IMG/VR virus record: IMGVR_UViG_3300045971_000208
Coordinates: 4,676-68,675 of that record
Direction: 5' to 3' (one strand)
Origin: a virus
Length of the DNA stretch: 64,000 bases
Under the pieces are notes generated by a model. That model was given only the letters and a program-made list of their open reading frames with translations, was not told the origin of the DNA and did not search any database. Numbering within the stretch: the stretch's first letter is position 1; every line of letters starts with the position of its first letter. The position numbers and the translations under genes are program-made. Shown here piece by piece: positions 1,414 to 57,392 of the stretch.

Positions 1414-1518
1414 AACATTCTACGCTCTACAAAATCTCTTATCGTATTGGATACGAAGTGGGTTTTGTTGTGAGTGCAATTGGTTCATTGATCAGCTATA
1501 TTATGTTCCCATTCTAAA

Positions 1519-1749
1519 ATGGAACAGTCAACTAAGAATAGTTTGATGCGATATTATGCTTCACTATCAGTTGAAGAACTGTTAGAACAGAAGCTTGAAA
1601 TTGGTGAACACTTGAGATTTGGTAGAGTAAAGAATATGGATGACATGAAGGTCTCCATTGCGATAATAAATGTTGAATTAAAGATGAGGAATGAAAATGA
1701 GCAAAGAGAAATATGCGCCCTTCCTAGCAGCAATGAAAAAGCTGGCTGA
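1519..1749 (+). CDS. hypothetical protein
   Basis: ORF track; operon context. Confidence 0.55.
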   Translation: MEQSTKNSLMRYYASLSVEELLEQKLEIGEHLRFGRVKNMDDMKVSIAIINVELKMRNENEQREICALPSSNEKAG

Positions 1750-19866: not shown

Positions 19867-20320
19867 GTTTGGGGATATGCTTCAGACAACTGAAGGTATC
19901 TTAGTCCATGGATGTAATGCCCAAGGTGTTATGGGTTCTGGAATTGCCGTGTCTATTAAGAACAAATACCCAAATGCATTCGCAGACTATAAGCAATTCT
20001 GTAGTCTAACACCGATGAATGAACGTCTTTGTCAAACAATATTCTCTTATGTGGGCACTCATTTAACCATAGCAAACTGTATTACTCAACTTCACTTTGG
20101 TAAAGAAGAAGGAAAACAGTATGTCAGCTACAGAGCTATTCAAGAGTGCTTTGAATCTCTTGCTAAGAGCGCATATCAATATGGCGATCATGTCAACTAC
20201 CCTTTAATCGGTGCGGGTTTAGGTGGTGGCGACTGGGCTATCATTTCCGAGATCATCGACAACGTCTTTGCTAAGCCAGAATATGTTCACATTAACAGAA
20301 CTTTATGGATTTACGAGTAG
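19853..20320 (+). CDS. macrodomain protein (ADP-ribose processing)
   Basis: GD...VHGCNAQGVMGSGIA and PLIGAGLGGGDW motifs. Confidence 0.92.
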   Translation: MKQIKFGDMLQTTEGILVHGCNAQGVMGSGIAVSIKNKYPNAFADYKQFCSLTPMNERLCQTIFSYVGTHLTIANCITQLHFGKEEGKQYVSYRAIQECFESLAKSAYQYGDHVNYPLIGAGLGGGDWAIISEIIDNVFAKPEYVHINRTLWIYE

Positions 20321-20363
20321 ATTCTCATAAATAGTTTATCAATTATGTTTAGATAAACACCCA

Positions 20364-23218: not shown

Positions 23219-23226
23219 TATAAATA
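23219..23226 (+). promoter_or_regulatory. T4-type late promoter
   Basis: TATAAATA, just after hairpin GGTGTC/GACACC. Confidence 0.8.
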
Positions 23227-40845: not shown

Positions 40846-41661
40846 ATGACAACTAAGCGTAAGCAACGCTATCCACAGCCCGTTCCTGAAACAACAGCGG
40901 GCGCAAAAGTCAAAGTCAGACAACAACTCAAGCCTAAGAATTTTACGCAAGAGATGTATCTAGAATCCCTCCAAGAACAGCTCCTTACGATATGTAGCGG
41001 TCCAGCTGGTTCAGGAAAAACCTACCTCGTTACGCACGTCGCTGTCCAAAAGCTCATCAACAATGAAGTTGATAAGATCGTCCTTACGCGCCCCGTAGTC
41101 GAAGCCGGTGAACACTTGGGATTCTTGCCTGGCACGTTAGAAGAGAAGCTAGATCCATATCTGCTTCCACTTATGGATGCTTTAGAAGACCACGTAGGTC
41201 CTACTATGGCTAAGAAGTTGGTTGAAGCTGGAAAGATTGAGGTGGCACCACTGGCCTTTATGAGAGGTCGGACATTTAACAATGCATTCGTTATTCTTGA
41301 CGAAGCGCAAAATTCAACAGTGGAACAAATTAGAATGTTTGTTACACGACAAGGGTACGATAGCATTTTTGCTATCAATGGTGACTTGAGTCAAACTGAC
41401 TTACAGAAGCCGAGAGATGCTGGAGCTGACTGGGAGAACGGGCTTCAGTACATTATTAGAAAACTTAAGGGGAGGGACGCAAGTATCAACTATATAGAAT
41501 TCCTAAACAGAGACGTTGTTAGATCGGCAATGGTTCAGCGAATCCTTACTTTGCTAGACGCACCTGAACCCCGCAAATCTGCTGAAAAACCTGCAAGGGT
41601 TAACGGCGCTAGACACAGCTTCATAGACGAGCCTGAGGGTATCGCACTACATTCTGCGTAG
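40846..41661 (+). CDS. phoH: PhoH-family ATPase
   Basis: GPAGSGKT, LGFLPG, FMRGRTF, ILDEAQN, GD..Q.D and DVVRS motifs. Confidence 0.96.
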   Translation: MTTKRKQRYPQPVPETTAGAKVKVRQQLKPKNFTQEMYLESLQEQLLTICSGPAGSGKTYLVTHVAVQKLINNEVDKIVLTRPVVEAGEHLGFLPGTLEEKLDPYLLPLMDALEDHVGPTMAKKLVEAGKIEVAPLAFMRGRTFNNAFVILDEAQNSTVEQIRMFVTRQGYDSIFAINGDLSQTDLQKPRDAGADWENGLQYIIRKLKGRDASINYIEFLNRDVVRSAMVQRILTLLDAPEPRKSAEKPARVNGARHSFIDEPEGIALHSA

Positions 41662-41679
41662 AGCACATCATCAATAGAC

Positions 41680-41711
41680 CTGGGCCGATTTCAAAGGAGG
41701 GATCGGCCCAG
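41680..41711 (+). terminator. GC-rich hairpin after phoH
   Basis: CTGGGCCGAT...ATCGGCCCAG; no clear U-tract. Confidence 0.55.
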
Positions 41712-41718
41712 CGTTCTG

Positions 41719-41726
41719 TATAAATA
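41719..41726 (+). promoter_or_regulatory. T4-type late promoter
   Basis: TATAAATA. Confidence 0.8.
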
Positions 41727-41737
41727 TAAGCTATAAG

Positions 41738-41807
41738 CTTATACAACTAAACCGGAATGTTGGATAAGTATTTTACCTAGTGACCCGGCACTATGGAGAC
41801 ACTATGA
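41738..41807 (+). promoter_or_regulatory. structured 5' leader (double hairpin with CCGG loops), copy A
   Basis: Stem CTTATACAAC/GTTGGATAAG with loop TAAACCGGAAT; stem TAGTG/CACTA with loop ACCCGG, next to the SD. Confidence 0.7.
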
Positions 41808-44203
41808 CTTATATTGTAAATTGGGCTAGCAAGAATGCGCAAGGCATTCTTGGGAAGTTGCCTATTGTTCTAGTAGATAAAACAATAGACAACACAAGCA
41901 CCTCATTAGCGCTTACCGGCAAAGCCGTTACTAACTATGGTGAAATTCAGCAGACCAATTTTCTCCAATTGCTAGAAAACTTTACATCTAATATTGCACC
42001 ATTACATCCAACTATTGGTCAATTATGGTTTTGCAATCTAGATTCGACACTTTATCTATGCGTCAATCCTTTAAACACCCTACCAATTGCGATGGGCGGG
42101 CCAACAATTTATTTTGCGTCAGGCGGACTGGGCTGGATTAGAGTAAGTTCAAGCTCTGTAGCTGACGTTATTACAGCTATTGGATATACACCATACCCAT
42201 CAACAAACCCAGCACAATACATTACCGCATCTCAGGCACCAGTCCAATCTGTTACTGTGGCACCGGCAATGTCGGGCATTGTTTCTGTATCAACTGGGCA
42301 ATACCCAACGATAACTATTAACCAGTCTACTGCATCAGTTAGTGGTTACTTAAGTTATACAGACTGGGGTATATTTAATGCCAAGGTTACATCTGTTACT
42401 GCTAGTAGTCCAGTCGTTTCTTCTGGTGGAAAAACTCCAAATATCTCATTAGCACTTGCAACTACTGGTGTTGATGGATATTTAAGTGGAGCTGATTGGG
42501 CAGTATTTAATGCCAAAATTTCTGCAGTTAGTGTCAGCAGTCCGCTTCAATCTTCAGGTGGTAAGTCTCCAAATATATCTATCCCGCCCTCATCTGCGCA
42601 AGCTGATGGATTTTTAACTGGCGGCGATTGGGGATTATTTAATGCGAAGGTAACGTCTGTAAGTGGAACAGGACCAATCGTTTCTTCAGGTGGTAAGACA
42701 CCTGCTATTTCGATTCCTCAAGCCACATCAGCTGTTGACGGATTTTTATCGCATTTAGATTGGTCAGCATTTAATGCTAAACAACCAGCACTTGGATATT
42801 CGCCTGTTGATCGGGCAGGCGATTCGATGTCGAATTTTTTAACACTTCACGCTAAGCCTACATTACCGCTACATGCGGCAACAAAATCATATGTTGATGA
42901 TATGGCTACTACTGATATATCAAATGCTAATACATATGCTAACACGGTTGGGTCAAATACATTAACTTCATCTAAAGCATATACTGACACTGTTGCTACA
43001 AGTACGCTATCTTCAGCTAATTCATATTCGAATACAGTTGGTTCAAATACGTTATCTTCAGCTAATACATATTCTAACACAGTTGGTTCAAATACATTAG
43101 CTTCATCTAAAACATATACTGACACTGTTGCTTCAAGTACATTATCAAGCGCTAATACTTATACAAATAATACTGCCTCAAGTACGCTATCTAGCGCTAA
43201 TGCATTTTCTAATACTGTCGGAACAAATATTCTATCAAGTGCTAATACTTATACAAATAATACTGCCTCAAGTACGTTATCTAGCGCTAATACTTACGCG
43301 GCAGCGGCAGCAGCGGCAGCTACAACGACTGTAACTACAGCAGAGACAAATAATGCTTGGTTCCAGTTGATGGCAACAACACTGTCAACAGGACCAGTAG
43401 CTCAAGCACTGGTCGATCCTCACCTTGTATTTCAGCCTTCAACTGGTAATTTGTGGTCATCACAAATTACCACGCCAAAGGCCACCCTCAACCGAATACT
43501 TTTAGGTGATGGCTCTGCTACTACACCATCATTAGCTTTTGTAAGTGACACTGGACAAGATACAGGTTTTTATTGGGAAAGTGATGGTATCATAAGTTTT
43601 GCAGCAAATGGCGTTAAAGCGGGTATGATATATGGGCCCCATTTACAAATGGTTGGAACAATCAGTGGTAATGCTGTTGTTGCACCTACTCAAGCGACTT
43701 CTGATAGTTCAACAAATATGGCAACTACAGCATTTGTACATAATGCAATTGCAGCCGCGCCAGCACCAACAACTCTTACTGTATCGACTTCAGCACCAGC
43801 GTCACCAGTATCGGGCGCAATGTGGTATGATATTGGCGCGACAGGCCGAACATACGTTTGGACAGGGTATGAGTGGGTTGATGCATCTCCTGCTGGTGCT
43901 GGGTCTGGTGCTGGTGTAGGCTCATCAGGGCAAGTATGGCAAGCAGTTTCTAGAGGCAAGGACACTACTTATACTAATAGTACCGGAAAAGCAATTGCTG
44001 TGTCTGTTGCATTTGCATCAGGTGGCGGTCCCGCATGGACATATTATGTTATAGTAGGTGGCATCGTTATTATAAATGGTGGCCAATCTGACACTACCAA
44101 CGGCGGAACTGCATTCCCACTATCATTCATAGTTCCAGATGGGAAAACTTATCTGGTACATACGAGTGTAAACAATATCTATGTGTGGGCTGAATTACGT
44201 TAA
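41804..44203 (+). CDS. fibre protein (receptor-binding candidate)
   Basis: GGAG SD before ATG 41804; N-terminal anchor domain shared with 44576; 44-aa and 11-aa repeats. Confidence 0.85.
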   Translation: MTYIVNWASKNAQGILGKLPIVLVDKTIDNTSTSLALTGKAVTNYGEIQQTNFLQLLENFTSNIAPLHPTIGQLWFCNLDSTLYLCVNPLNTLPIAMGGPTIYFASGGLGWIRVSSSSVADVITAIGYTPYPSTNPAQYITASQAPVQSVTVAPAMSGIVSVSTGQYPTITINQSTASVSGYLSYTDWGIFNAKVTSVTASSPVVSSGGKTPNISLALATTGVDGYLSGADWAVFNAKISAVSVSSPLQSSGGKSPNISIPPSSAQADGFLTGGDWGLFNAKVTSVSGTGPIVSSGGKTPAISIPQATSAVDGFLSHLDWSAFNAKQPALGYSPVDRAGDSMSNFLTLHAKPTLPLHAATKSYVDDMATTDISNANTYANTVGSNTLTSSKAYTDTVATSTLSSANSYSNTVGSNTLSSANTYSNTVGSNTLASSKTYTDTVASSTLSSANTYTNNTASSTLSSANAFSNTVGTNILSSANTYTNNTASSTLSSANTYAAAAAAAATTTVTTAETNNAWFQLMATTLSTGPVAQALVDPHLVFQPSTGNLWSSQITTPKATLNRILLGDGSATTPSLAFVSDTGQDTGFYWESDGIISFAANGVKAGMIYGPHLQMVGTISGNAVVAPTQATSDSSTNMATTAFVHNAIAAAPAPTTLTVSTSAPASPVSGAMWYDIGATGRTYVWTGYEWVDASPAGAGSGAGVGSSGQVWQAVSRGKDTTYTNSTGKAIAVSVAFASGGGPAWTYYVIVGGIVIINGGQSDTTNGGTAFPLSFIVPDGKTYLVHTSVNNIYVWAELR
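42344..42783 (+). repeat. 132-nt (44-aa) tandem repeats G(Y/F)L...DW..FNAK
   Basis: Three full units plus one partial, starting at 42344, 42476, 42608 and 42740. Confidence 0.85.
42923..43297 (+). repeat. 33-nt (11-aa) hendecad repeats SANTY(T/S)(N/D)
   Basis: About 11 units, e.g. TLSSANTYTNN and TLASSKTYTDT. Confidence 0.85.
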
Positions 44204-44215
44204 TCTGGAATAAAA

Positions 44216-44500
44216 ATGAAACACTACATATCTCCAACTAATGAACTATATGCTTATGAAGAAGATGGTTCACAGGATAATTTAATACCATCTAACTTTA
44301 CACTCATAACTAAAGCAGAGGCAGATGCTAGGCAGATGCCACAGCTTTCGGGCAATGATTTAATTAAGTTGCAGATTTATAATTTAGAAGCAACAATTAC
44401 TCCACGTAGACTTCGCGAAGCTACTTTGTCCCCCGATGGATTAGCCTGGCTAACAACAGTTGATGCGCAAATTGCTGCACTCAGAGCACAGTTAGTGTAG
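44216..44500 (+). CDS. fibre assembly/chaperone-like protein
   Basis: YAYE.DGSQD...I..LEA..TPRRLREA pattern; follows the fibre gene. Confidence 0.7.
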   Translation: MKHYISPTNELYAYEEDGSQDNLIPSNFTLITKAEADARQMPQLSGNDLIKLQIYNLEATITPRRLREATLSPDGLAWLTTVDAQIAALRAQLV

Positions 44501-44512
44501 AAACATTTAAGC

Positions 44513-44579
44513 ATGTTTAGCTTAACCGGATGCTAAACATATTTTCACCTAGTGAACCGGCACTATGGAGACACTATGA
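44513..44579 (+). promoter_or_regulatory. structured 5' leader (double hairpin with CCGG loops), copy B
   Basis: Stem ATGTTTAGC/GCTAAACAT with loop TTAACCGGAT; stem TAGTG/CACTA with loop AACCGG. Confidence 0.7.
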
Positions 44580-46381
44580 CTTATTACGTTAGATGGAGCA
44601 GCAATGCTCCGCAAATTGCGCAGGGTATAGCCGGCAAAACCCCCATTACGCTCTTAGATAAAACCATCGACACTACTAGTACTTCTCTAGTGCTTACTGG
44701 TAAAGGTGTATCAAATTATGGCGAAATTCAGCAAGATAACTTCGTTAGAATAATGGAGCATTTTGCTTCTAATGTCCCGCCTCCACACCCAACTATTGGC
44801 CAACTATGGTTTAATAGTGCTGACTCATCTTTGTATTTGTGCGCCAACCCGACAACCACACTCGCCCCAGCATCTGGCGGGCCTACTGTTTATTTTGCTA
44901 GTGCTGGGTTGGGTTGGGTTAGAGCTAGTGCAAGCTCGAAAGCTGATGTAACAGCTGCTATTGGGTATGTACCATATAATGCTACTACAAATTTATCGGG
45001 ATATGTCAATGCAGCTCAAGCTTCTACTGCTGCACCAGTTCAATCTGTTGCAGGACATACTGGAACGGTTACTCTAACACCTACCGATATTGGAGGTCTT
45101 GCAGCATACGTTGCAACTAGTTCAGCAGTAACATCAGTAAATGGTAAAACTGGCACCGTAGTTCTTACTACTGCAGATTTAGGAGCAACCACTGCAACAA
45201 CAACATTATCTGGCCCATTAATTCTCGCAAACAACCCAATTGACCCAATGGGTGCTGCTACTAAGGCATATGCAGACTCATTGATTATGTCGGGCCCAAC
45301 TGGTCCACAGGGACCACAAGGCATTCAAGGTTTAGTTGGAAATCCTGGTGCAACTGGGCCTGCAGGGCCAATTGGCAATACTGGCAACAATGGTGCAACT
45401 GGACCAGCTGGTCCAACTGGTAACACTGGACCAGCTGGACCGCAGGGAGCGACAGGCCCACAGGGCATTCAGGGACCAGCTGGACCAACTGGAGCGACCG
45501 GTCCAACTGGACCTACCGGTAATACAGGTTTAACTGGACCACAAGGGCCACAAGGTATTCAGGGGGTGGCTGGTACAGCTGGCGCAGCTGGCGCACCGGG
45601 AGCGACTGGCGCAACTGGCCCAATGGGACCAGCTGGTGCATCTGGTTCTAACCCTACTACGTCTGGTGTATTGGCTGCTATTGGGTATACCCCATATGAT
45701 GCTGCTAATCCAACCGGTTTTATTACGACTGGCGGCCGGGCGTATCCACGTAAAGCTGATGGTGGCGATATCAATTTTAGCTGGGCGGGTCAAACTGGTC
45801 AGCCAACTTGGTTGTGGGGCGGCAATTCGGCAAATGATGGTGTTAACATGGTCGTTTACAACCCATCAAACTTTAATGTTAGCCATGCGGTATCAGCTAA
45901 TTCTGCTGTATTATTAACTGGGCCTGCAGCTACAAATGGAACTGATGGATGGTTTAGAAGTGATGGTGATTCAGGATGGTACAGCACCACGTATGGTGCT
46001 GGCATTTATTCAACTGGTGCTGGATTAGTTCAGACATATAATGGATCATCATTTAAATCTCAAGGTTACATTACAGCAGTTGGTGACGTAACAGCTTTCT
46101 CTGATGAAAGATTAAAAACTAACTGGCAAGATTTACCAGTTAATTTTGTGGAACAGCTTTCTGGAGTAAAGGTTGGTATCTATGATAGGCTTGATGTTAA
46201 ATCAACGCAGGTAGGTGTATCAGCTCAGTCGCTTCAAGCAGTTATGCCTAATGCTGTAATAACAAATGACGATGATTTCTTATCTGTAGCTTATGGTAAT
46301 GCAGCTTTAGCTGCATGCATCATGTTGGCTAAGGAAGTTCAAGAACTCAAGGCAAAAATAGCTATCTTGGAAGCAAAATAA
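44576..46381 (+). CDS. collagen-like fibre protein with C-terminal intramolecular chaperone (peptidase S74)
   Basis: N-terminal domain shared with 41804; 40 GxY triplets; SDERLK...GVSAQ...V.Y motif. Confidence 0.88.
45293..45652 (+). repeat. collagen Gly-X-Y repeat (40 triplets)
   Basis: Counted from the translation. Confidence 0.9.
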
Positions 46382-46435: not shown

Positions 46436-47569
46436 ATGTTGAAGATAACTGAAGTAGAAGTGTTTCGCGAGCTTGTAGAAGGCAAGGAAGAAATTCGTGA
46501 ATCCCTAATCGGTCATGGGTGTACTTCATTCTGCTACATGATCTCTGGACCAGACACTTTTGATTCGGCTGCTGCACGTGAGTGTCGTGGTATCGTTTTT
46601 GCTGGACCAGATGTAGTGGGTCGCCCATTGCATAAGTTCTTCAACGTGAATGAACGTGAAGAAACCTTGCTTCAGAACCTAGACTGGTCGAAGGTCGTAC
46701 GCGTTATGGACAAGCGAGATGGTTCAATGATCCACTCTGTTTGTACCATGGATGGTATCTTCTTGAAGTCGAAGAAGTCTTTCGAGTCAGATGTGGCTAA
46801 GGCTGCTGATTCGTGGATGCGTTCACCTCAAGGTAAGAATGTTTTCCAGATGGTTAATCATCTGACCGCATTCAACAAGACTTGCATCTTCGAATGGACG
46901 GCTCCATCGGCTCGTATCGTTCTCTTCTACCCAGAAGCTGAACTTCAGTTGCTTCACGCACGTGACAACTTGACTGGCGAATATATGGATAAGGAAACTC
47001 TCCATGGATGGGCAAAGGAATTTGGTGTGAAGGTTGTTGAGGAAGTTGACCTATCCAAGTATGGTGTTGACCTATCCAAGATGGACTTCAAGGCTGCAGA
47101 ACATCTGCATAAGACTGTTGAAGGTGTTGAAGGTTGGGTATTCCAGTTTGAAGATGGAAACATGGTCAAGCTGAAGACTGACTGGTACATCAAGCGTCAC
47201 CATGCTATGACGTTCGTTCGCGAACGCGACATTGCTCAGCTGGTTCTGGACGAAGGTCTTGACGACATGAAGGCAATGCTTGTATCTGAAAATGTGAACA
47301 TCGACCGCATTCTAGAAATAGAGCGTGATGTTGTTTATAAGCTGAACTCGTTGAAGCGCTGTGTTGATTGGACTGTTAAGGAATCCGCTGGTATGGATCG
47401 TAAGACCTTTGCTATGACCCACAATGGTCACCAATATTTTGCGCTGTTCATGAAGGCTTATGTTGGTGCAGAACCACCATACAAGGAATATTTCGAACGA
47501 AATATCCTGAAGCAGGAGTATGGTTTGGACCAAGTTGTAATGATGCCTACTATTGCTGAAGCTGACTGA
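46436..47569 (+). CDS. rnlA: RNA ligase 1 family
   Basis: ECRGIVF, KFFN, KRDGS (motif I), EGWV and VKLKT.WY motifs. Confidence 0.9.
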   Translation: MLKITEVEVFRELVEGKEEIRESLIGHGCTSFCYMISGPDTFDSAAARECRGIVFAGPDVVGRPLHKFFNVNEREETLLQNLDWSKVVRVMDKRDGSMIHSVCTMDGIFLKSKKSFESDVAKAADSWMRSPQGKNVFQMVNHLTAFNKTCIFEWTAPSARIVLFYPEAELQLLHARDNLTGEYMDKETLHGWAKEFGVKVVEEVDLSKYGVDLSKMDFKAAEHLHKTVEGVEGWVFQFEDGNMVKLKTDWYIKRHHAMTFVRERDIAQLVLDEGLDDMKAMLVSENVNIDRILEIERDVVYKLNSLKRCVDWTVKESAGMDRKTFAMTHNGHQYFALFMKAYVGAEPPYKEYFERNILKQEYGLDQVVMMPTIAEAD

Positions 47570-47877
47570 TGGATAAGAAAGCCAGACAACTTCAGGCTGA
47601 CTGGGAAGCCCTGCTCAAGAAGCATTCAAAGCCTCTTGAACGGGGCGCTCAAGCTTTTGGTGTGAAGACTTACAGGTTGAAACCGAAGGTTGAAAAGAAC
47701 CAGGAAGAACTGCAGAAGATTAGAAGCCTTGTTACACCTGGCGGAGATACACCAAAAAGCCCGCCCAAGATTTATAGCGGTGATAAAATGATTGGTATCG
47801 CTGTAGCGCATAAGAGCTGTTTGGTACCAATATTTTCAAAAGAGCAAGCTCAGGACATGTCAAAGATGCGAAGGTAA
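47569..47877 (+). CDS. conserved T4-like hypothetical protein
   Basis: Y.G....GIA..HKS..VP.F...A.DM..MRR. Confidence 0.75.
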   Translation: MDKKARQLQADWEALLKKHSKPLERGAQAFGVKTYRLKPKVEKNQEELQKIRSLVTPGGDTPKSPPKIYSGDKMIGIAVAHKSCLVPIFSKEQAQDMSKMRR

Positions 47878-47910
47878 TAAATACACTGACATAGTATTTA
47901 TTGGAATAAG

Positions 47911-48729
47911 ATGAAGCAGTTCAAACCGACATATCTTTACGTTAAGACCCATAATCAAACTGGGTTAAAATATTTTGGTAAAACATCCAAAAATCCGCAT
48001 ACTTATAAAGGATCTGGGAAATATTGGGTTAGACATTTGAATGTTTATGGTAGAGATATTTCAACTGAAATAATAGGATATTTTGAAGATGCTGTTGAAT
48101 GCAGCGCTGCTGCAATTGAATTCTCTGTGAAGAATAATATAGTTTCTTCAAATGACTGGGCTAATTTAATAAATGAGAATGGATTAGATGGTGGGGCTGT
48201 TGAACGTGCCTATCACCCGCACTCTAAAGAAACTAAAGATAAAATTTCAAAAGCTAATCGTGGAATGATTGCTTGGAATAAAGATAAAGTTGGAGTTACT
48301 CCCGGGAATTCTTCTATAAGAACTGAAGAAACAAAAAGGAAAATTTCGCAGACTTTAACTGGAACCAAACAATCAGCAGAGACAGTTCAAAAAAGAGCAG
48401 AAGCAAATAAAGGTAAAAAGAGATCAGCTGATTTTAAAAAACTGATTTCTGAATTGCATAAAGGTAAAAAACTTTCTGCAGAGCATATTGAAAAATTGAA
48501 AAATAGGATAGTGACTGATGATACTAAGGCTAAAATAAAGTTAGCAAGAAGTAAGCAGATATTTTCTGAAGAAACAAAACAGAAATTATCTGGTAAGGTA
48601 ATAGTAATAGATAAGTTAGGAAATGTTTTGAGAATACCTAAAGAGCAATATAGCTCACAATCTGGCCCTAAGGATGAATGGGAATACTTATTTCATCGTG
48701 ATAAACTTGCAACAATGCGGAGAAACTAA
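47911..48729 (+). CDS. Seg-like (GIY-YIG) homing endonuclease with NUMOD3 repeats
   Basis: YLYVK...GLKYFGK, Y.GSG..W, ANL..ENG; HS.ETK.KIS repeats. Confidence 0.85.
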   Translation: MKQFKPTYLYVKTHNQTGLKYFGKTSKNPHTYKGSGKYWVRHLNVYGRDISTEIIGYFEDAVECSAAAIEFSVKNNIVSSNDWANLINENGLDGGAVERAYHPHSKETKDKISKANRGMIAWNKDKVGVTPGNSSIRTEETKRKISQTLTGTKQSAETVQKRAEANKGKKRSADFKKLISELHKGKKLSAEHIEKLKNRIVTDDTKAKIKLARSKQIFSEETKQKLSGKVIVIDKLGNVLRIPKEQYSSQSGPKDEWEYLFHRDKLATMRRN

Positions 48730-48990
48730 ATGGTAAAAGTTTTTATTGATATGGACCAGGGTTTCCGCTGGTGGCCAGTAATGGAAGATGATCCTATTCA
48801 TGCTTACTGGCACAGGGATATGACGTTAGAAATTACTAATGAGCTAATGGCTGAATATAAAACTGCCTATGAAGCATATCAGGCAGTGCAGGAAAAGTTA
48901 GAAGCATTGTATAGGATACAAAATGGATATGAGCCACATCCAAGTCAAGTGGCTCCAGAACATAAGCTATTGGAGAAGAAAGATGAATGA
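48730..48990 (+). CDS. hypothetical protein
   Basis: GGAG SD. Confidence 0.7.
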   Translation: MVKVFIDMDQGFRWWPVMEDDPIHAYWHRDMTLEITNELMAEYKTAYEAYQAVQEKLEALYRIQNGYEPHPSQVAPEHKLLEKKDE

Positions 48991-50083
48991 TTTTGCTGAT
49001 GCTGAAAAGACCCTTGCTACCGCTGCAGTTCGTATGCAAGTAGAACGCAAGCTTGCTTCTGTCCGTAAGATAGATGACATTCGTCCTATCGAAGGTGCTG
49101 ATGCTATTGAAGTAGCAGTGCTTGGTGGATGGAAAGTTGTTGTCAAGAAGGGTGAATACACACCTGGTGATCTTGCTGTCTACTGTGAAATTGATTGCTG
49201 GATTCCTACTGAGATTGCTTCCTTCCTTTCGAAGGGAAAGGAACCCCGTGTCTATGAAGGTATTAAGGGTGAGAAGCTTCGCACTGTAAAGTTGCGCGGC
49301 CAAATCTCTCAGGGTCTTCTACTTCCTATGGACGTAGTTGATAACATTACTGTCACAGTAGGCGATGATGTGACATCGCATCTTGGTATTGTAAAGTGGG
49401 AACCAGTTCTTCCTGCTAATATGGCTGGGCAAGTAAAGGGCTTGTTCCCCAGCTTCATTCGCAAGACTGATCAAGAACGTTGTCAGAATCTTATTGAAGA
49501 AATCTTTGTAGAGAACAAGGATGCTCGCTACGAAGTTACCATGAAGCTTGATGGTTCTTCGGTCACTGGATACCGACTGCAAAAGGATTCAGGGGTTTGT
49601 TCTCGTAACCTTGAGCTAAAGGTTAATGACGAGAACAAAGATAATGCTCTAGTTAAAATGTTCCAAGGTTCAATGCTTCAAGCTGTGCTTGATAAGATTG
49701 CCGAGAACCTCGCTGTTCAGGGTGAGCTTATGGGGCCTGGTATCCAAGGTAACCGTGAAAACTTTAAGGACACAAAGTTCTTTATCTTTGATGTTCAGTT
49801 TATTGATGATCAAGAATACATGCGGCCAGATGTTAGAGCTCGCTTTATGCAAGAGCTTCTAGATTATGGTGTTGATGGGCAGACAGTGCAGCATGTTCCA
49901 GTTCTTCATATGAATGTTACTCTTGCTGATCTTGGTATTTTTAATGTTGAAGACCTTCTGAAGTTTGCTGAAGGTCCATCGATTAACCACCAGGTTCGGG
50001 AAGGTGTAGTATTCAAGCGAATGGATGGTAAGTTCAGCTTCAAGGCTATTTCGAATAAATTTTTGGAGCGAGAGAAGGATTAG
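48983..50083 (+). CDS. RNA ligase, Rnl2/DRB0094 family
   Basis: RKLAS...PIEGADAIE, KLRGQISQGL, KTDQER, KLDGSS, REGVVFK and SFKAIS motifs. Confidence 0.9.
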   Translation: MNDFADAEKTLATAAVRMQVERKLASVRKIDDIRPIEGADAIEVAVLGGWKVVVKKGEYTPGDLAVYCEIDCWIPTEIASFLSKGKEPRVYEGIKGEKLRTVKLRGQISQGLLLPMDVVDNITVTVGDDVTSHLGIVKWEPVLPANMAGQVKGLFPSFIRKTDQERCQNLIEEIFVENKDARYEVTMKLDGSSVTGYRLQKDSGVCSRNLELKVNDENKDNALVKMFQGSMLQAVLDKIAENLAVQGELMGPGIQGNRENFKDTKFFIFDVQFIDDQEYMRPDVRARFMQELLDYGVDGQTVQHVPVLHMNVTLADLGIFNVEDLLKFAEGPSINHQVREGVVFKRMDGKFSFKAISNKFLEREKD

Positions 50084-57192: not shown

Positions 57193-57392
57193 TGAAAAAG
57201 AATCTTATCATTACACTAGAACTTACTATTGAGGATCCAAATGGTCCTCTTGATGAAGTACGGATTTGTGAAATCAAAGCTCTAGTAGAAGAAGCTACCC
57301 AAGGTTCATTTGCAAAAGTAATGTGGAACTTTGGTAATTACCTTGACGCTGAAGTAAAAGAAGTGCAAGTTGTGGAGAGCTATGGCTTCTGA
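57192..57392 (+). CDS. hypothetical protein
   Basis: TAATG coupling. Confidence 0.6.
   Translation: MKKNLIITLELTIEDPNGPLDEVRICEIKALVEEATQGSFAKVMWNFGNYLDAEVKEVQVVESYGF

Follow-up and report, generated by a model that had tools for sequence, protein, structure and literature searches.

Why do two paralogous tail-fibre genes keep nearly the same RNA leader when the coding DNA downstream of it is far more diverged? This question is raised by a 64-kb stretch of DNA (hereafter the window, meaning the whole stretch that was analysed) from a 68.7-kb IMG/VR virus record (IMGVR_UViG_3300045971_000208; CheckV completeness 19%), which is a fragment of an uncultured T4-related jumbo phage. Two fibre genes, starting at ATG 41804 and ATG 44576, are each preceded by a leader of about 66 nucleotides (nt) built on a common plan, namely a hairpin (P1), a linker, a mini-hairpin (P2), a GGAG Shine-Dalgarno (SD) sequence and the ATG. 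An earlier reading of the window (the first-pass annotation) had noticed this double-hairpin architecture, recognised no described family in it, and proposed that it forms a structured cis-acting RNA on the sense strand which switches or balances translation of the two fibres. Here we report that the leader is a real RNA family, undescribed as far as we found, whose hairpins are supported by covariation and whose loops are predicted to pair with each other, and we tentatively favour a role for it in governing fibre translation.

Direct reading of the sequence places the elements of the two copies as follows.

41680..41711, plus strand: GC-rich, terminator-like hairpin after the PhoH gene and ahead of the late box (terminator scan; 13 pairs, 8 of them G-C)
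41719..41726, plus strand: TATAAATA, a T4-type late-promoter box by sequence, with putative promoter function, 11 nt before P1 of copy 1
41738-41747 / 41759-41768, plus strand: hairpin P1 of copy 1 with the 11-nt loop TAAACCGGAAT at 41748-41758 (sequence, covariance model)
41769..41777, plus strand: U-rich, G-free linker of copy 1 (sequence)
41778-41782 / 41789-41793, plus strand: mini-hairpin P2 of copy 1, TAGTG/CACTA, with the 6-nt loop ACCCGG at 41783-41788
41795..41806, plus strand: SD sequence GGAG of copy 1 (41795-41798) and ATG (41804-41806) of the fibre gene of 799 amino acids (aa)
44513-44521 / 44532-44540, plus strand: hairpin P1 of copy 2 with the loop TTAACCGGAT at 44522-44531 (sequence)
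44541..44549, plus strand: U-rich linker of copy 2 (sequence)
44550-44554 / 44561-44565, plus strand: mini-hairpin P2 of copy 2, TAGTG/CACTA, with the loop AACCGG at 44555-44560
44567..44578, plus strand: SD sequence GGAG of copy 2 (44567-44570) and ATG (44576-44578) of the 601-aa fibre gene

The architecture that had been claimed for both leaders is therefore borne out by direct reading, including the T-rich linker and the hairpin TAGTG-A(C/A)CCGG-CACTA followed by GGAG. P1 has 9 of 10 pairs in copy 1 (one A.G mismatch) and 9 of 9 in copy 2, and, as had been noticed, its stems are unrelated in sequence between the two copies and its loops are nearly identical. The strands that could kiss are CCGG in each loop, at 41752-41755 (loop 1) and 41785-41788 (loop 2) in copy 1 and at 44526-44529 and 44557-44560 in copy 2. 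From ACCTAGTG to ATGACTTAT the two copies differ at only 1 of 39 aligned positions (manual count). Copy 2 has no late-promoter box, and its P1 begins 12 nt past the stop codon of the open reading frame (ORF) at 44216-44500. Folding of the single sequences gave modest z-scores relative to shuffles (-1.65 for copy 1 and -2.49 for copy 2), so the evidence for the leader fold comes from comparison and not from folding energies; in its minimum-energy fold, copy 1 adopts the alternative pairing with the second CACTA that the first-pass annotation had pointed out. In copy 2, AAACAT at 44501-44506 could also pair with ATGTTT at 44513-44518 in the 5' strand of P1, which would give a small hairpin competing with P1.

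A covariance model was built from the two window copies (R1), the check that the first-pass annotation had proposed, and when it was run against the window and related loci, homologous leaders were found; Rfam gave no matching family. Within the window only the two copies were significant (E values of 2e-22 and 4.9e-21; next match 0.54), which confirms a shared architecture, and in 492 kb of related loci from 93 sources R1 retrieved 25 family leaders at E <= 5. A second model rebuilt from 23 matches (R2) retrieved 28 leaders from the 492 kb at E < 0.03, all of which run up to the start codon of a gene encoding the fibre N-terminal domain (N-domain), and no additional significant match in the window; all R1 and R2 matches lie on the strand of the gene. 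Two window segments, 20277-20362 (minus strand) and 57308-57384 (plus strand), were rejected as members (R1 E values of 0.54 and 1.6; absent under R2). In the closest relatives the plan reads NATAAATA, a hairpin of free sequence with an ACCGG loop, a linker, GUGA(A/G)CCGGC(A/G)C and GGAG. Both window copies show the family features, with an ACCGG-loop P1, a P2 whose 6-nt loop is closed by G-C, and an SD sequence 0-6 nt away.

The wider survey ties the element to the N-domain. Searching with this domain yielded 113 proteins, many of them from contigs 100-360 kb long; a locus search driven by an alignment then found 78 loci in IMG/VR and another 55 among metagenome contigs, and 137 distinct leaders were read over the 105-110 nt before each start codon. 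Five whole jumbo-phage records (239-368 kb), comprising four of 343-368 kb that have terminal repeats and are 100% complete according to CheckV and one of 239 kb, contain one or two leader copies each, and all six matches at E < 0.02 fall at places already known as fibre leaders. Pattern scans of IMG/VR that ignored gene positions returned mostly chance matches among the matches listed and are no census; of 121 matches listed in the first, five had both a late box and an SD-ATG arrangement, and all five precede the N-domain, and of 77 loci tested among the matches listed in the second, six were model-positive and all six precede the N-domain. These gene-blind matches added four leaders beyond the 28. 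The cultured Ralstonia phage RsoM2USA carries one copy (E 1.2e-8), which precedes RsoM2USA_355; the hypothetical protein encoded there has 390 aa and begins with the fibre N-domain. In Atu_ph07, Phosso and Xoo-sp13 the leaders of the fibre homologues are short, contain only a late box and lack the element, the weak matches in Xoo-sp13 and Atu_ph07 (E 0.16 and 0.33) not being taken as members, and XacN1 gave no model match.

As to whether the family had been described before, Rfam 15 gave no match at the gathering score in the whole window and 20 related loci, and at E <= 10 over 41600-44700 it gave five chance-level matches, all outside the leaders. A literature search turned up no description of kissing-loop or pseudoknot leaders of fibre genes, and the text of the RsoM2USA paper, supplementary tables aside (which may list ORF355), contains neither 'promoter' nor 'ORF355'. 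The impression that no described family matches thus agrees with Rfam.

Several further loci show variations around this plan. A segment at 1501-1561 (minus strand) of locus L260 in record G004 (R2 E value of 0.039) was not counted because the second CCGG loop is absent; it stands before a gene for a 196-aa tail-tube-like protein, behind AATAAATA, with ACCGG in a possible loop, and may be a chance match or a degenerate relative. At 3269 in L013/L007 and at 1275 in L200, a second N-domain gene follows about 12-20 nt after the first, with a short GGAG spacer and no leader element, so not every paralogue keeps the RNA. In L216 (1495), L224 (724), L335 and L337, the fibre gene starts with GTG or TTG after the usual P2-GGAG arrangement, and two of these four have the variant late boxes CATAAACA and TTTATATAG.

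The alignments of homologous leaders provide the evidence for the fold. In the model-fitted alignment of 28 sequences (A9), which leans towards structure, 94.4% of cells pair, compared with 66.3% for shuffled partners and 32-38% for slid partners, and 149 cells are changed on both sides, compared with 41 in shuffles; in the same alignment all 10 pairs of P1 and 4 of the 5 pairs of P2 covary. A sequence-only MAFFT alignment (A3) shows covariation at all five P2 pairs, and the loop-loop helix is 99.1% paired in it, with changes on both sides from G-C to A-U (L020) and from G-C to C-G (L013). The compensated loop variants are CCGC/GCGG and CCAG/CUGG, and a third variant (L032) has CCGU with GCGG. 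Within the kissing class the strands are mostly invariant CCGG, and the support for the loop-loop contact comes from three variant lineages (L013/L007, L020/L021 and L032). One P2 pair is U.G in 10 of the 28 sequences of A9, which indicates that the sense strand is the strand that folds. When 3' halves were swapped among 37 leaders, the cognate combinations scored 493 against 434 +/- 17 for the chimeras, and only 3 of 20000 permutations were as high; this test was automatic, and its parser places P1 wrongly in several members, an error that should do no more than weaken the test. Shuffle tests of the 4-base-pair (bp) loop contact in single sequences were individually weak (p of 0.08-0.4), and with a parser that mis-assigns P1 in several leaders, 10 of 92 reached p <= 0.05, compared with 4.6 expected.

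As shown by comparison among relatives, P1 and P2 are predicted to form, and their loops to pair through four G-C pairs (CCGG with CCGG). Most of what the first-pass annotation had deduced about structure thus gains support: pairing and loops are kept in homologous leaders, P1, with stems that differ in sequence, covaries at all of its pairs, the proposed kiss between the CCGG loops is matched by compensated changes (CCGC/GCGG and CCAG/CUGG, and 6 of 6 pairs in the H-type relatives described below), and a structured cis-acting RNA on the sense strand of the fibre leaders is supported.

More distant relatives have no P2; the loop of their P1 is instead complementary to the six bases that lie immediately 5' of the SD sequence, as in an H-type pseudoknot. 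In a plain MAFFT alignment of 11 such relatives (A10), the 6-bp pseudoknot is 97% paired and all six pairs are changed on both sides, whereas none of 500 shuffles was as good and slid versions pair at 14-52%. Comparison of these sequences shows that the H-type relatives would reach the topology of the kissing class without P2. The leader at 1421-1503 of L222 has a 6-bp loop contact (ACCGGC/GCCGGU) and a P2 whose 3' strand overlaps the SD sequence (GAAAGGA); it was not reported by R2 at E <= 5 and looks like an intermediate between the two forms.

The geometry of the 28 leaders is also well defined. P1 has 5-10 modelled pairs with a loop of 8-18 nt, the linker has 3-13 nt (101 T and 4 G among the 200 bases of the family linkers), and loop 2 is always 6 nt long and of the form A-N-CCGG (28/28), A77 and the closing pair G76-C83 of this loop being invariant (28/28). 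P2 ends 0-6 nt before the SD sequence (median 1), and the SD-AUG spacing is 5-10 nt. Two details that the first-pass annotation had emphasised are peculiar to few leaders. The extension of P2 by two CC:GG pairs into the SD sequence is present in the window and is possible in just 5 of the 28 leaders, so that occlusion of the SD sequence is not conserved; similarly, the second CACTATG is present in the window, and 2 of the 28 leaders, both of them the window copies, have a second CACTA at the start codon. A switch through re-pairing of TAGTG with this repeat finds no comparative support, the repeat being limited to the near-identical copies of the window, and a CsrA/RsmA site, which had also been considered, is disfavoured by loops that carry CCGG and no GGA, the loop motif of CsrA.

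A late box, NNTAAATA, is found in 25 of the 28 leaders at a median of 10 nt before P1, and of the three leaders without the standard box, one is window copy 2 and the other two have variant boxes. According to the accessible part of a report on Rak2-like jumbo phages (PMC5259590), phages CBB and GAP32, whose sigma factor is gp55-like, carry ATAAATA ahead of structural genes. By analogy, the box before the leaders is probably a late promoter. In the window, TATAAATA occurs in 7 exact copies compared with 3.4 expected. Further boxes at 23219, 40301, 63315 and 63929 (plus strand) lie just upstream of plus-strand ORFs, none of them followed by a leader element, and are consistent with T4-type late promoters.

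What, then, might the fold do? Our tentative preference is that late tail-fibre mRNA carries, in its 5' untranslated region, a conserved cis-acting RNA of which the leaders are copies, and that this RNA governs translation. A compact kissing-loop pseudoknot ending 0-6 nt before GGAG would sit against the ribosome-binding site and set how frequently 30S subunits initiate on the fibre message, in the manner of a translational operator. It might act alone or as a docking site for a phage or host factor, and the same translation setting would then be applied to both paralogous fibres, which have a common N-terminal anchor domain. We favour an operator-like role because the element is gene-specific, is placed to meet the 30S platform, and has invariant unpaired bases. 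Translational self-repression through leader structures is described for T4 gp32 and gp43 in the accessible part of a T4 review (PMC3014915). The earlier suggestion that the leader controls or balances fibre translation is plausible.

Several observations weigh against this preference. In a model of nested structures, the accessibility of the SD sequence was 0.41, compared with 0.39 in shuffled leaders (Wilcoxon p of 0.44), and predicted AUG accessibility likewise showed no difference from shuffled leaders; the fold is thus not obviously occluding the SD sequence. The counts of covarying P1 pairs derive from the model-fitted alignment, no candidate RNA-binding partner was identified, and the strict link to the N-domain could be plain vertical inheritance, as PhoH lies upstream of the leader in all five related loci tested. 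Moreover, the H-type relatives have neither P2 nor a loop sequence in common with the window class, which makes one sequence-specific factor for all of them unlikely.

A more specific proposal, which we regard as improbable, is feedback coupled to assembly, in which the N-domain of an unattached fibre, or its baseplate partner, would bind the leader and stop fibre translation. Such feedback would explain why the RNA is restricted to N-domain genes and why P2, the SD sequence and the start are nearly identical in the window copies. If it were true, paralogous fibres competing for one attachment site would be made in step with free sites, and the leader would be a structural-protein counterpart of the autoregulation known for ribosomal proteins and gp32.

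Among the alternatives to translational control, a passive 5' structure survives best, although we consider it rather unlikely. The pseudoknot would protect or insulate the fibre mRNA, which would resist decay that depends on the 5' end and would fold independently of upstream sequence, with no trans-acting factor involved; P1 would start at about the late transcription start, and the pseudoknot would tie the 5' end to the segment next to the SD sequence. T4 late transcription starts a few bases past the promoter box, and 5'-terminal stem-loops stabilise Escherichia coli mRNAs, as in the ompA leader. The position of the late box ahead of P1 in 25 of the 28 leaders agrees with this, as does the H-type P1, which on reading the sequences begins about 3-8 nt after TAAATA, and the free variation of the pseudoknot sequence is what would be expected if only shape mattered. 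However, neither window copy 2 nor the RsoM2USA copy has a late box ahead of it, both being internal to operons, only one or two late genes per genome of about 350 kb carry the element, the U-rich linker of 8-9 nt stays single-stranded, and the invariant unpaired A and the closing pair of loop 2 would be needless for mere protection. Processing of P1 by RNase III was rejected, the stem being judged too short for an enzyme that requires about 20 bp.

A ligand-sensing riboswitch is a highly doubtful explanation. In this case a small molecule or ion would stabilise the loop-loop contact beside the SD sequence, as guanidinium does in the guanidine-II class (mini-ykkC, which we take to be Rfam RF01068). 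The likeness to that class, as the accessible parts of two reports describe it (PMC5558903, PMC7544219), lies in two hairpins in tandem with a linker that varies between them, in C-G pairs that bring the loops into contact, and in a 3' hairpin just before the ribosome-binding site; the adenines flanking the loops of the fibre leader are conserved as well. However, guanidine-II has two identical ACGR tetraloops and controls genes for guanidine carboxylase and SugE-like proteins, whereas the fibre leader has loops of 6 nt and 8-18 nt with a four-base pairing and stands before phage fibre genes. Even with the threshold relaxed to E <= 10, Rfam gave neither mini-ykkC nor any other riboswitch. As the H-type relatives build the topology from unrelated sequences, there is no conserved pocket common to all; why a fibre gene should respond to a metabolite is not obvious; and the accessible part of the T4 review remarks that no riboswitch system had been noted (PMC3014915).

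Very unlikely, too, is a transcription attenuator, in which P1 and the U-rich linker would form an intrinsic terminator gating read-through into the fibre gene. The linkers are indeed 50% T (101/200 bases), and TTTT follows P1 directly in 9 of the 28 leaders, but the other 19 have no T-run, P1 was not called by the terminator scan, its loops of 8-18 nt exceeding the 3-8 nt limit of that scan, and neither the covarying contact with the downstream segment nor the fixed distance to the SD sequence would have a role.

Lastly, a feature at the DNA level with no RNA function (palindromes bound by proteins, sites of restriction or methylation, or a tract of recombination or gene conversion) is barely credible. 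CCGG is a palindrome, and the identity of 38 of 39 positions around P2, the SD sequence and the ATG between the window copies could reflect recent gene conversion. Against this reading, the helices keep pairing while their sequences change, U.G wobbles (at one pair in 10 of 28 sequences) are confined to the sense strand, all model matches lie on the strand of the gene, and each of the pseudoknot sequence pairs, at least nine of which are different, would call for a protein specificity of its own.

To our knowledge, few structured leaders that control phage genes are known, for example those of T4 genes 32 and 43. The pseudoknot of the E. coli rpsO (S15) leader includes the SD sequence and the start region, whereas the SD sequence of the fibre leader is outside the fold, and neither sequence nor gene is related. 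The following likenesses are drawn from the accessible part of the T4 review (PMC3014915). The rpsO leader is likewise a pseudoknot in a translational operator. The gene 32 leader of T4, T2 and RB69 is likewise a pseudoknot in the 5' leader of a T4-type phage gene that controls translation of that gene; it is located about 67 nt upstream of the start codon and is the nucleus from which cooperative binding extends over an A+U-rich tract that has no structure. Unlike it, the fibre leader ends 0-6 nt before the SD sequence, uses a kiss between two hairpins, and precedes fibre genes instead of the gene of a protein that binds single-stranded DNA; the two have no sequence similarity, and no binding protein is known for the fibre leader. 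The gene 43 operator of T4 and RB69 likewise places a small hairpin with a conserved loop upstream of a phage gene's ribosome-binding site, but it consists of one hairpin, which has a UAAC-type loop, forms no pseudoknot and is bound by the product of its own gene, a nucleic-acid enzyme, whereas in the fibre leader another loop would contact the hairpin loop and the gene encodes a structural fibre. The fibre leader would work most like the operators of T4 genes 32 and 43 and looks most like guanidine-II, and it has the defining features of neither.

The family is of interest as a pseudoknot class backed by covariation and tied to host-recognition genes in phages of 340-370 kb, almost all of them uncultured. 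Its two solutions to one topology, a loop-loop kiss and an H-type pseudoknot, offer a natural case for studying how RNA tertiary contacts evolve, and the leader can serve as an annotation marker for the fibre locus in these genomes. The copy in the cultured phage RsoM2USA makes it experimentally accessible. If the leader sets fibre dosage, it would also bear on how alternative receptor-binding proteins are balanced and on the engineering of fibre expression.

The remainder of the window fits its assignment to a T4-related jumbo phage. It encodes T4-type topoisomerase II subunits, a family B DNA polymerase, PhoH and a Clp-type prohead protease, together with Rnl1- and Rnl2-like RNA ligases and a homing endonuclease. 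The DNA polymerase is nearest to that of phage RsoM2USA (44.6% identity) and then to the XacN1/Xoo-sp13 group. No near-identical DNA was found among GenBank phages, an exact 22-mer lookup in IMG/VR gave no match, and a locus search with a single protein confirmed no locus. A look-up of sequencing runs for this DNA listed four DNA runs and no RNA run.

Fibre gene 1 (41804-44203) encodes 799 aa, and fibre gene 2 (44576-46381) encodes 601 aa with collagen repeats and a Peptidase_S74 chaperone domain. The N-terminal regions of the two products (about 150 residues) are 63% identical over 158 residues. For this N-domain, a sequence search of PDB found no relative; its AlphaFold2 model has a mean predicted local distance difference test score (pLDDT) of 71.8, and with this model Foldseek gave no match at E <= 0.001 and VIA-align a best Z of 3.4, which is not meaningful.

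PhoH, terminator-like hairpin, late box, leader and fibre gene follow one another in a conserved order, seen at 40846-41806 of the window and in L007, L016, L018, L023 and L025. On reading of the sequences, hairpins like that at 41680-41711 also precede the promoter box in related loci. We know of no role assigned to PhoH-like ATPases in phages, and the fixed place of PhoH beside a structured leader may carry some meaning or none. The 94-aa ORF at 44216-44500, located between the fibre genes, has no Pfam or NCBIfam family and a weak match to a PHROG of unknown function, and it may be a fibre assembly helper. Straight after fibre gene 2, the region 46436-50083 holds the Rnl1-like gene, a NUMOD3 homing endonuclease and the Rnl2-family ligase; the PHROG of the Rnl1-like gene is annotated 'RNA ligase and tail fiber protein attachment catalyst', like T4 gp63.

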